A stretch of 55,987 bases of DNA, the filler included, from Dugesia japonica (lineage: Eukaryota): NCBI GenBank assembly GCA_001938525.1. It is 6 parts of 6 records of this genome, joined end to end, with 100 filler letters (N's around TTAATTAATTAA, not from the genome) between each part and the next. Parts side by side here need not be neighbours in the genome. Positions count along the whole stretch, not along the records: positions 47,402 to 55,987 come from MQRL01624493.1; 5 more parts are not named here. One strand, written 5' to 3'. Positions 47,946 to 49,142 of the stretch are shown here, piece by piece; position 1 is the first letter of the stretch, and each line of letters starts with the position of its first letter. Below the pieces are notes generated by a model. That model was not told the DNA's origin. It saw only the letters and a program-made list of their open reading frames with translations, and did not search any database. Position numbers and translations under genes: made by a program.

Positions 47946-49142
47946 TCAATGAAATTGCACTCCCAACACCCTATGTACGATTAGTTTCCGACACATAGGG
48001 CATTCATTTAAATTTATAGCGCAGTTGTAACATCTTTTAAAATGTCCGCATGGAAGAAAGATAACTTCAATAGTTTCTTCCAGGCATGTGACACAATCAT
48101 TATCCTTTAATACCCATTCTTGTTCATATTTTACTTGTTGCCTTACTGGTCTAAGAGATTGTTGATATAATTCATAAGGTGTGCTTAATTCAGTCCCTTT
48201 CTCTATGAGTGTTTGTTTTATCAGTGGGTTGATATTTACTTGCTTGAATTTTAGGATATTAGTTAGTATGTTGGTCTGTAATTCAATTACCATTTTTGTT
48301 CTTGTAAGGGACGTATTCCATTCGACTCTACAAGTTGTTGTTGGTAATTTCTCCTCATCACTTTGCCTCGTCCTTGAACTGGTTTTGTGATGAAATATAT
48401 CCTTTGGCAATTTCTCTACACCTTTTAAGATCAGGGTTTTCTTTTTATATGTGGTGCATTTCATAATTTGGTTACTCGTTTGTTGAGTGATATATAATCC
48501 TGTCATAGCCTTTTTCATTAAGTCCGATGCTTCTTTAAAGGTTTTTTCTCTAGCTTTAATATTCCATATAAGATCCTTGGAAAATATTACTTCTGCCAGA
48601 TTCTTTATGATTCCGCAATATAATGTTTTCCGTTCCAGTGTTGTTTTCTCAGGTTCCAGCCTATTTCCTTTGATTGGCTGAATTTTATTATTTACATCTA
48701 GATATAATAGAAACGGACAAGTAGAAAACTATCTCTTGTGAGCTCTATTGGGTTTCTCGTTTATGCCCCATTTGCATAGGTTGCCTTGGCAGTATATACA
48801 TTTCACTTTATCTGAACGTTCTTGAGTGCCGGCGAAATAAAATCCAGATCTGGCTATATCCTCAATGAGTCCATGTAAATTTTTGGGTAAATCAAATAAG
48901 GATTTTGTTCGCATCCCTTCGTCACGATATTTATTGTCAAACACTTTCATCGCACTGTACAACACTTTGCGTCGTATAAGATTTTCTGGTGAGCCAAAGC
49001 TATTATGGTAATGCATTGTGTTTTGCACTTTTGAAATTTGCTTAACTTCATCTCGTCCTTGGCTCATGCGACATAATTCAATATATGGATCGTTCATTAT
49101 TAGTCTGGCCTCGATTATCGATAATTCCAGATCGAACTCCAT
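47946..49142 (-). pseudogene. Inhibitor of apoptosis (single BIR plus C-terminal RING), one in-frame stop at 48731-48729
   Basis: ORFs 48729-49142 and 47946-48518 share one frame. The BIR reads IARSGFYFAG...DKVKCIYC-x16-H-x6-C (RAHKR*FSTCPF). The IAP-type RING reads CVTC...VIFLPCGHFKRCYNCAINLNECPMCR. Confidence 0.92.

Follow-up and report, generated by a model that had tools for sequence, protein, structure and literature searches.

The segment spanning positions 47402 to 55987 of the window (the whole stretch of 55,987 nucleotides from Dugesia japonica analysed here, filler included) holds, in the reading that we favour and consider fairly probable, one dead copy from a multi-copy Ty3/Gypsy family in which an IAP gene stands as its own ORF behind pol; the element is likely a Burro-related planarian element and the IAP likely anti-apoptotic in active copies. 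Its kinship with Burro is probable, and the host would be a planarian. That a retroelement carries a cell-survival gene is an idea already in print, for Burro1; new here is a second family, silent and decaying, with a different post-integrase layout, and the added value is modest.

The window is AT-rich eukaryotic DNA. The sole lead on the host taxon came from a neighbouring host gene, with an Atlas match of third rank at 0.88. Its segment 47402-55987 is gap-free, without N, and shows a continuous A-rich composition of the minus strand, on which RNase H, integrase, Cys-rich repeats, membrane protein, Ser-rich ORF, IAP and coiled coil follow one another in this order:

55290-55987, no strand assigned: another repeat, of very high depth, which disrupts the element on the upstream side of its RNase H and lies outside it
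54977-55244, minus strand: RNase H remnant with frameshifts; the remaining pol is absent from the window
53426-54960, minus strand: Ty3/Gypsy integrase (H2C2 and rve) with 412 open codons; the C-terminal module follows after a stop and a frameshift
52881-53309, minus strand: Cys-rich repeat unit 1, sharing 31% identity with unit 2 over 131 aa (E 4e-23)
51975-52403, minus strand: Cys-rich repeat unit 2, family not recognised
50060-51647, minus strand: decayed membrane-protein region comprising an ectodomain-like part, a transmembrane helix, a patch of basic residues and PPSY
about 50165-50221, minus strand: transmembrane helix of the membrane-protein region
50087-50098, minus strand: PPSY motif of the membrane-protein region
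49391-50008, minus strand: Ser-rich ORF with an N-terminal hydrophobic stretch and three stops
49142 to 47946, minus strand: intronless IAP frame (398 codons and the terminal stop) with one internal stop and no frameshift
48729-48731, minus strand: internal stop of the IAP frame (codon 138), between the BIR His and the last BIR Cys
47402-47883, minus strand: coiled-coil-like ORF that follows the IAP and runs into an assembly gap; coverage and a joint assign it to the element

The order of RNase H followed by integrase, recovered by Pfam and tblastn, identifies the element as Ty3/Gypsy. LTR, gag, protease and RT are not visible in the window, where the 5' part is replaced by the other repeat and the window end and the 3' side is an N gap, and no long direct repeat touching the element region was found among the 20 repeat families listed; the element is presumably an LTR element. 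The preliminary description had spoken of a neighbouring env-like ORF. This holds for the topology of the membrane protein (a single transmembrane helix, a patch of basic residues and PPSY) and not for homology, as its decayed pieces yielded no env match in Pfam or PDB. The Cys-rich repeats downstream of the integrase represent a helical domain of approximately 130 aa in two copies that align without gaps; no family was found for it in Pfam, PDB or Atlas, and its model, with a pLDDT of 35, was not usable. By eye, on the basis of a motif, the repeat at 55290-55987 was presumed to be Penelope-like; neither Pfam nor PDB supported this identity, and it was not retained.

The IAP frame agrees with its earlier reading as a single-frame BIR and RING gene with one TAG lesion. 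Its intronless state was confirmed by the relative P0003, which was aligned by tblastn over 47952-49040 in a single frame. The BIR spacing is exactly as reported before (C115-x2-C118-x16-H135-x6-C142), the RING spacing is C350-x2-C353-x11-C365-x-H367-x3-C371-x2-C374-x6-C381-x2-C384, and the Pfam scan proposed as a check returned BIR with 49.7 bits (cut-off 22.9) and zf-C3HC4_3 with 45.6 bits (cut-off 27). In 200 shuffles of the window the BIR pattern occurred 7 times and the RING pattern never; the occurrence of the patterns in the frame is not due to chance. The position of the stop relative to the zinc ligands had been overlooked: codon 138 lies ahead of C142, the last BIR Cys. As the stop thus falls inside the BIR, after the zinc-binding His and before the last ligand, neither a folded BIR nor a RING can be produced from this copy, which is dead, and the stop at 48729-48731 precludes an intact protein from 47946-49142.

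The domains of the encoded protein are as follows:

48708-48866, minus strand: BIR1 (Pfam PF00653, residues 93-145), with a model fold like the BIRs of XIAP, cIAP and DIAP1
48375-48551, minus strand: degenerate second BIR (residues approximately 198-256), weak here and clear in three relatives
48153-48272, minus strand: UBA-like helical stretch (residues approximately 291-330), proposed from the alignment to P0003
47979-48104, minus strand: IAP-type C3HC4 RING (PF13920, residues 347-388)

The structure model has a pLDDT of 47 as a whole and is confident only in the BIR region (60-85), which matches the BIR structures of XIAP, cIAP and DIAP1. The zinc ligands of BIR1 are kept, and its alignment with BIRs that bind peptides, e.g., DIAP1 BIR2 and XIAP BIR3, is good. 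The second BIR and the UBA-like stretch, both located between BIR and RING, had escaped the preliminary description. A second C-C-H-C cluster is kept in the relatives, where it scored above 200 of 200 shuffles in P0105, P0273 and P0125, and is weak in P0003 and in the present copy (4 and 9 of 200 shuffles, respectively). The UBA-like segment is clear in P0003 (25.3 bits, 0 of 200 shuffles), from which it aligns to residues 291-330 of the window IAP; the window copy gives no score for this stretch on its own sequence. The relatives suggest a protein made up, in this order, of BIR, degenerate BIR, UBA-like stretch and RING.

A HMMER scan of 1.84 billion representatives with the IAP produced 4967 matches. 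The best relative, P0003, matched over the full length with 37% identity (E 3e-60); P0105 and P0125 matched in a single stretch each. In a tree of BIR and RING, which took 50 of 153 proteins (16 chosen and 34 at random), the window IAP and four relatives (P0003, P0105, P0125 and P0273) formed one clade with a support of 99/100 against 45 other IAPs, on a long branch of its own. Three of the IAP relatives derive from ENA assemblies. Regarding the outside IAPs, ten of the 45 were looked up, and four of these carry names (three molluscs and one fish). Scans of public collections with the IAP returned generic IAP or RING loci, and a scan of IMG/VR with P0105 found nothing. The contig L002 was left outside the tree, as were 33 further IAP loci; these 34 loci matched BIR or RING segments alone or were weak overall. 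(Note that L002 1-8059 holds a Polinton-like set, with integrase, ATPase-like and capsid-like ORFs recognised by eye, and a BIR-RING IAP at its end.) We infer that the IAP came from an animal long ago. The preliminary description had derived it from a host mRNA. Genes passed through retrotransposition lose their introns, so the intronless state of the IAP does not prove such a source. The members of this distinct element-type IAP clade make it possible to ask whether there was a single capture and whether the cargo persists after the element has fallen inactive.

The DNA runs X1 and X3 placed 8218 and 8266 contigs on the stretch, respectively, and covered every one of the 30 bins, which run from the coiled-coil ORF through to RNase H; this coverage marks the element as a dispersed multi-copy family. 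Most of these contigs are less than 95% alike, and at position 48815 of the IAP 21 (X1) and 23 (X3) contigs differ from the window copy. Joints in other copies were found at 47790-47915 (both DNA runs), 48440-50862 (X1 and X3, with a 50-letter side), 50615-52127 (X1) and, inside the integrase, 52206-54008 (X3), each being one contig per run and all belonging to the 15 of 70 joints, or 12 of 20 filled joints, that were listed. No contig in X1 or X3 covered both IAP and integrase; the linkage between the two is stepwise and consistent in order and strand. The many divergent contigs and the stepwise deletion joints thus identify the IAP as cargo of the family, and the earlier statement that it lies inside a retrotransposon is supported.

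The same observations bear on a reading of the IAP as a passenger, i.e., a processed copy or a Polinton-type gene which landed in one copy or a small subfamily and was never under selection. Such a passenger would fit the presence of an IAP in the Polinton-like contig L002, a summed depth that is lower over the IAP than over the integrase, and a lesion contrast that lacks significance. We consider it quite improbable, however, given the divergent contigs over the IAP and the joints to both of its flanks in other copies, the absence of a poly-A remnant after the IAP stop, and the continuation of the element downstream as the coiled-coil ORF; the higher depth over the integrase is expected because the integrase bins also gather related families.

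Regarding the preservation of the window copy, the preliminary description had the IAP carrying a single lesion and its neighbours several. In a heuristic frame trace, the post-integrase region indeed showed approximately 17 lesions in 1123 codons and the Ser-rich ORF 3 in 205, whereas the integrase core (0 in 412) and the coiled-coil ORF (0 in 160) are undamaged. A better preservation of the IAP was not borne out (1 lesion in 398 codons against approximately 25 in 2093, p=0.064; for stops only p=0.22). With 1.1 to 4.3 stops expected in the IAP frame at 2-8% divergence and one observed, and with the contrast being weak, selective preservation of the window copy was rejected. Among the 40 listed of 877 differences, those in the IAP (6) and in the integrase (9) all fall on codon positions 1 or 2, a weak indication of private decay at sites conserved in the family; the stop at 48729-48731 is absent from these 40. 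The poly-A RNA runs X14 and X17 (same species label, tissue and strain unspecified; 13.6 and 11.6 million records read, at 85% likeness without a host-gene control) gave 0 reads on the five IAP bins.

The integrase grouped with eight pol proteins (P0153-P0160, mis-binned or without a name) with a support of 98 (FastTree, 118 rows) and 41-46% identity. In six of the eight a transmembrane segment follows the integrase at the end of the protein, and P0153 also has PPSY; seven of the eight derive from ENA assemblies. Unusual features of this clade are the fusion of membrane proteins behind the integrase, an extra aspartic protease after the integrase (P0155 by Pfam, P0160 by eye) and, in P0158, a membrane segment ahead of the protease. 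Scans of IMG/VR with pol found nothing, and none of the 59 public-collection loci combined an IAP with a Gypsy pol; the only one of these loci in the pol clade of the window, L035, ends approximately 1.5 kb past the integrase match and is too short. The loci L035-L059 are eukaryotic Gypsy integrases whose contigs have been catalogued as MAGs of bacteria or archaea, a filing that probably reflects host contamination.

These relatives could be taken to place the element outside Burro, in a Ty3/Gypsy clade that stands apart, with a membrane protein behind the integrase and an IAP lineage of its own, maybe extending beyond planarians. The integrase grouping with its membrane segments and PPSY, the derivation of the three IAP relatives and seven of the eight pols from ENA assemblies, and the silence of the family in two RNA runs all agree with such a clade. 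We nevertheless regard it as unlikely: Burro may itself fall inside the P0153-P0160 clade, the IAP and pol relatives could not be assigned to common contigs, and for Burro a BIR and an Smc-like motif are listed in the available part of its description, while a coiled-coil ORF comes after the window IAP. With about the same low likelihood, the IAP cargo might be no peculiarity of Burro1 but an old trait of a wider Ty3/Gypsy clade that has a membrane protein behind its integrase, its IAP lineage reaching beyond triclads and supplying a RING-IAP to flatworm hosts reported to lack their own. The source for this lack reports the loss of RING-IAPs in its surveyed flatworm set and, in the part available, mentions neither Schmidtea nor planarians (PMC13159474).

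For the favoured reading, a Burro-related family with an IAP as its cargo, the function proposed for the IAP would follow from knowledge of the IAP family and from the Burro1 report. BIR-RING IAPs bind caspases or IAP-binding-motif proteins via the BIR and ubiquitylate via the RING. In an intact family member, BIR1 would bind caspases or their IAP-binding-motif antagonists, the RING would ubiquitylate the proteins bound by BIR1, and cells expressing an active element would survive. The IAP could instead be selected cargo that serves the element itself, with the protein acting as a ubiquitin ligase in the release of particles or in countering innate signalling and not as a caspase block. In favour of this are the RING, the UBA-like stretch, the degenerate state of the second BIR and, in the upstream membrane protein, PPxY, a motif by which retroviruses recruit ubiquitin ligases for budding. 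The kept zinc ligands of BIR1 and its good alignment to peptide-binding BIRs argue against this alternative, as does the sole functional report on such cargo, which in its available part is anti-apoptotic (PMC13465017), and we hold it to be scarcely probable. The purpose assigned to the gene in the preliminary description, survival of the host cell, agrees with the available report on Burro1 B-IAP (PMC13465017).

Elsewhere in the window, decayed ORFs at 27077-29843 (minus strand) resemble by eye the capsid-like genes of L002 and are likely a Polinton remnant; they gave no Pfam match. An exon of 988 aa at 6132-9098 (minus strand), of low complexity and with a single aberrant C2H2 finger (weak Pfam match), is probably part of a host gene, and a homolog search with this ORF found nothing. 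An intronless claudin/PMP22-like membrane ORF (Atlas 0.91) is located at 19708-20259 (plus strand). A 109-nt inverted repeat with a 24-nt spacer at 17791-18032, which belongs to a repeat found in several partial copies across the window, is possibly a MITE, and minisatellite arrays of 29-32 and 53-57 nt units occupy 22724-25381.

Compared with known RING-IAPs, the window IAP shares the BIR fold and the C3HC4 RING with XIAP, cIAP and DIAP1/2, and its closest relative, P0003, also has the UBA-like region. In contrast to the animal RING-IAPs, it belongs to a long-branch clade of its own, has a pre-BIR motif private to this clade and a second BIR that is degenerate, and is intronless, multi-copy and located inside an element. 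Baculovirus IAPs and the IAP of the Polinton-like L002 are also intronless BIR-RING genes on a mobile carrier, whereas the carrier here is a retroelement.

The closest match among described systems is Burro. For planarian Burro elements, the available part of PMC6431247 describes motifs of the BIR (Burro1-4), Smc and BCL2-like types. It places the env of Burro1 between gag and pol and mentions, for a further dugesiid, decayed Burro fragments that contain frameshifts and stops. Burro1 (GYPSM1) is reported to have taken up a BIR and RING B-IAP that guards stem cells from caspase-mediated death (available part of PMC13465017, citing Dev Cell 2026, doi 10.1016/j.devcel.2026.03.001), and its transcript is given as highly abundant in the available part of PMC8532177. 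The available parts of PMC11410931, PMC10175614 and PMC13238120 held nothing further on element layout, and no report of a retrotransposon-borne IAP beyond Burro was found in the literature as far as its text was available. Three 20-mer primers published in PMC8532177, in its available part, did not match the window at 3 mismatches (0 of 3); they may target a part of the element that is absent here. With its BIR cargo in a Gypsy element the window copy has a feature of Burro, and as in Burro1 this is a Gypsy-type element with BIR and RING; the Smc-like motif described for Burro compares with the coiled-coil ORF after the IAP. Burro elements exceed 30 kb and have a giant ORF1; the window lacks the 5' half of its element, and the copy is broken. 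Burro1 is an abundant transcript, whereas the window family gave no IAP reads in either of the two RNA runs. Finally, Burro1 has its env between gag and pol, whereas the element described here has a membrane protein and two Cys-rich repeats after the integrase.
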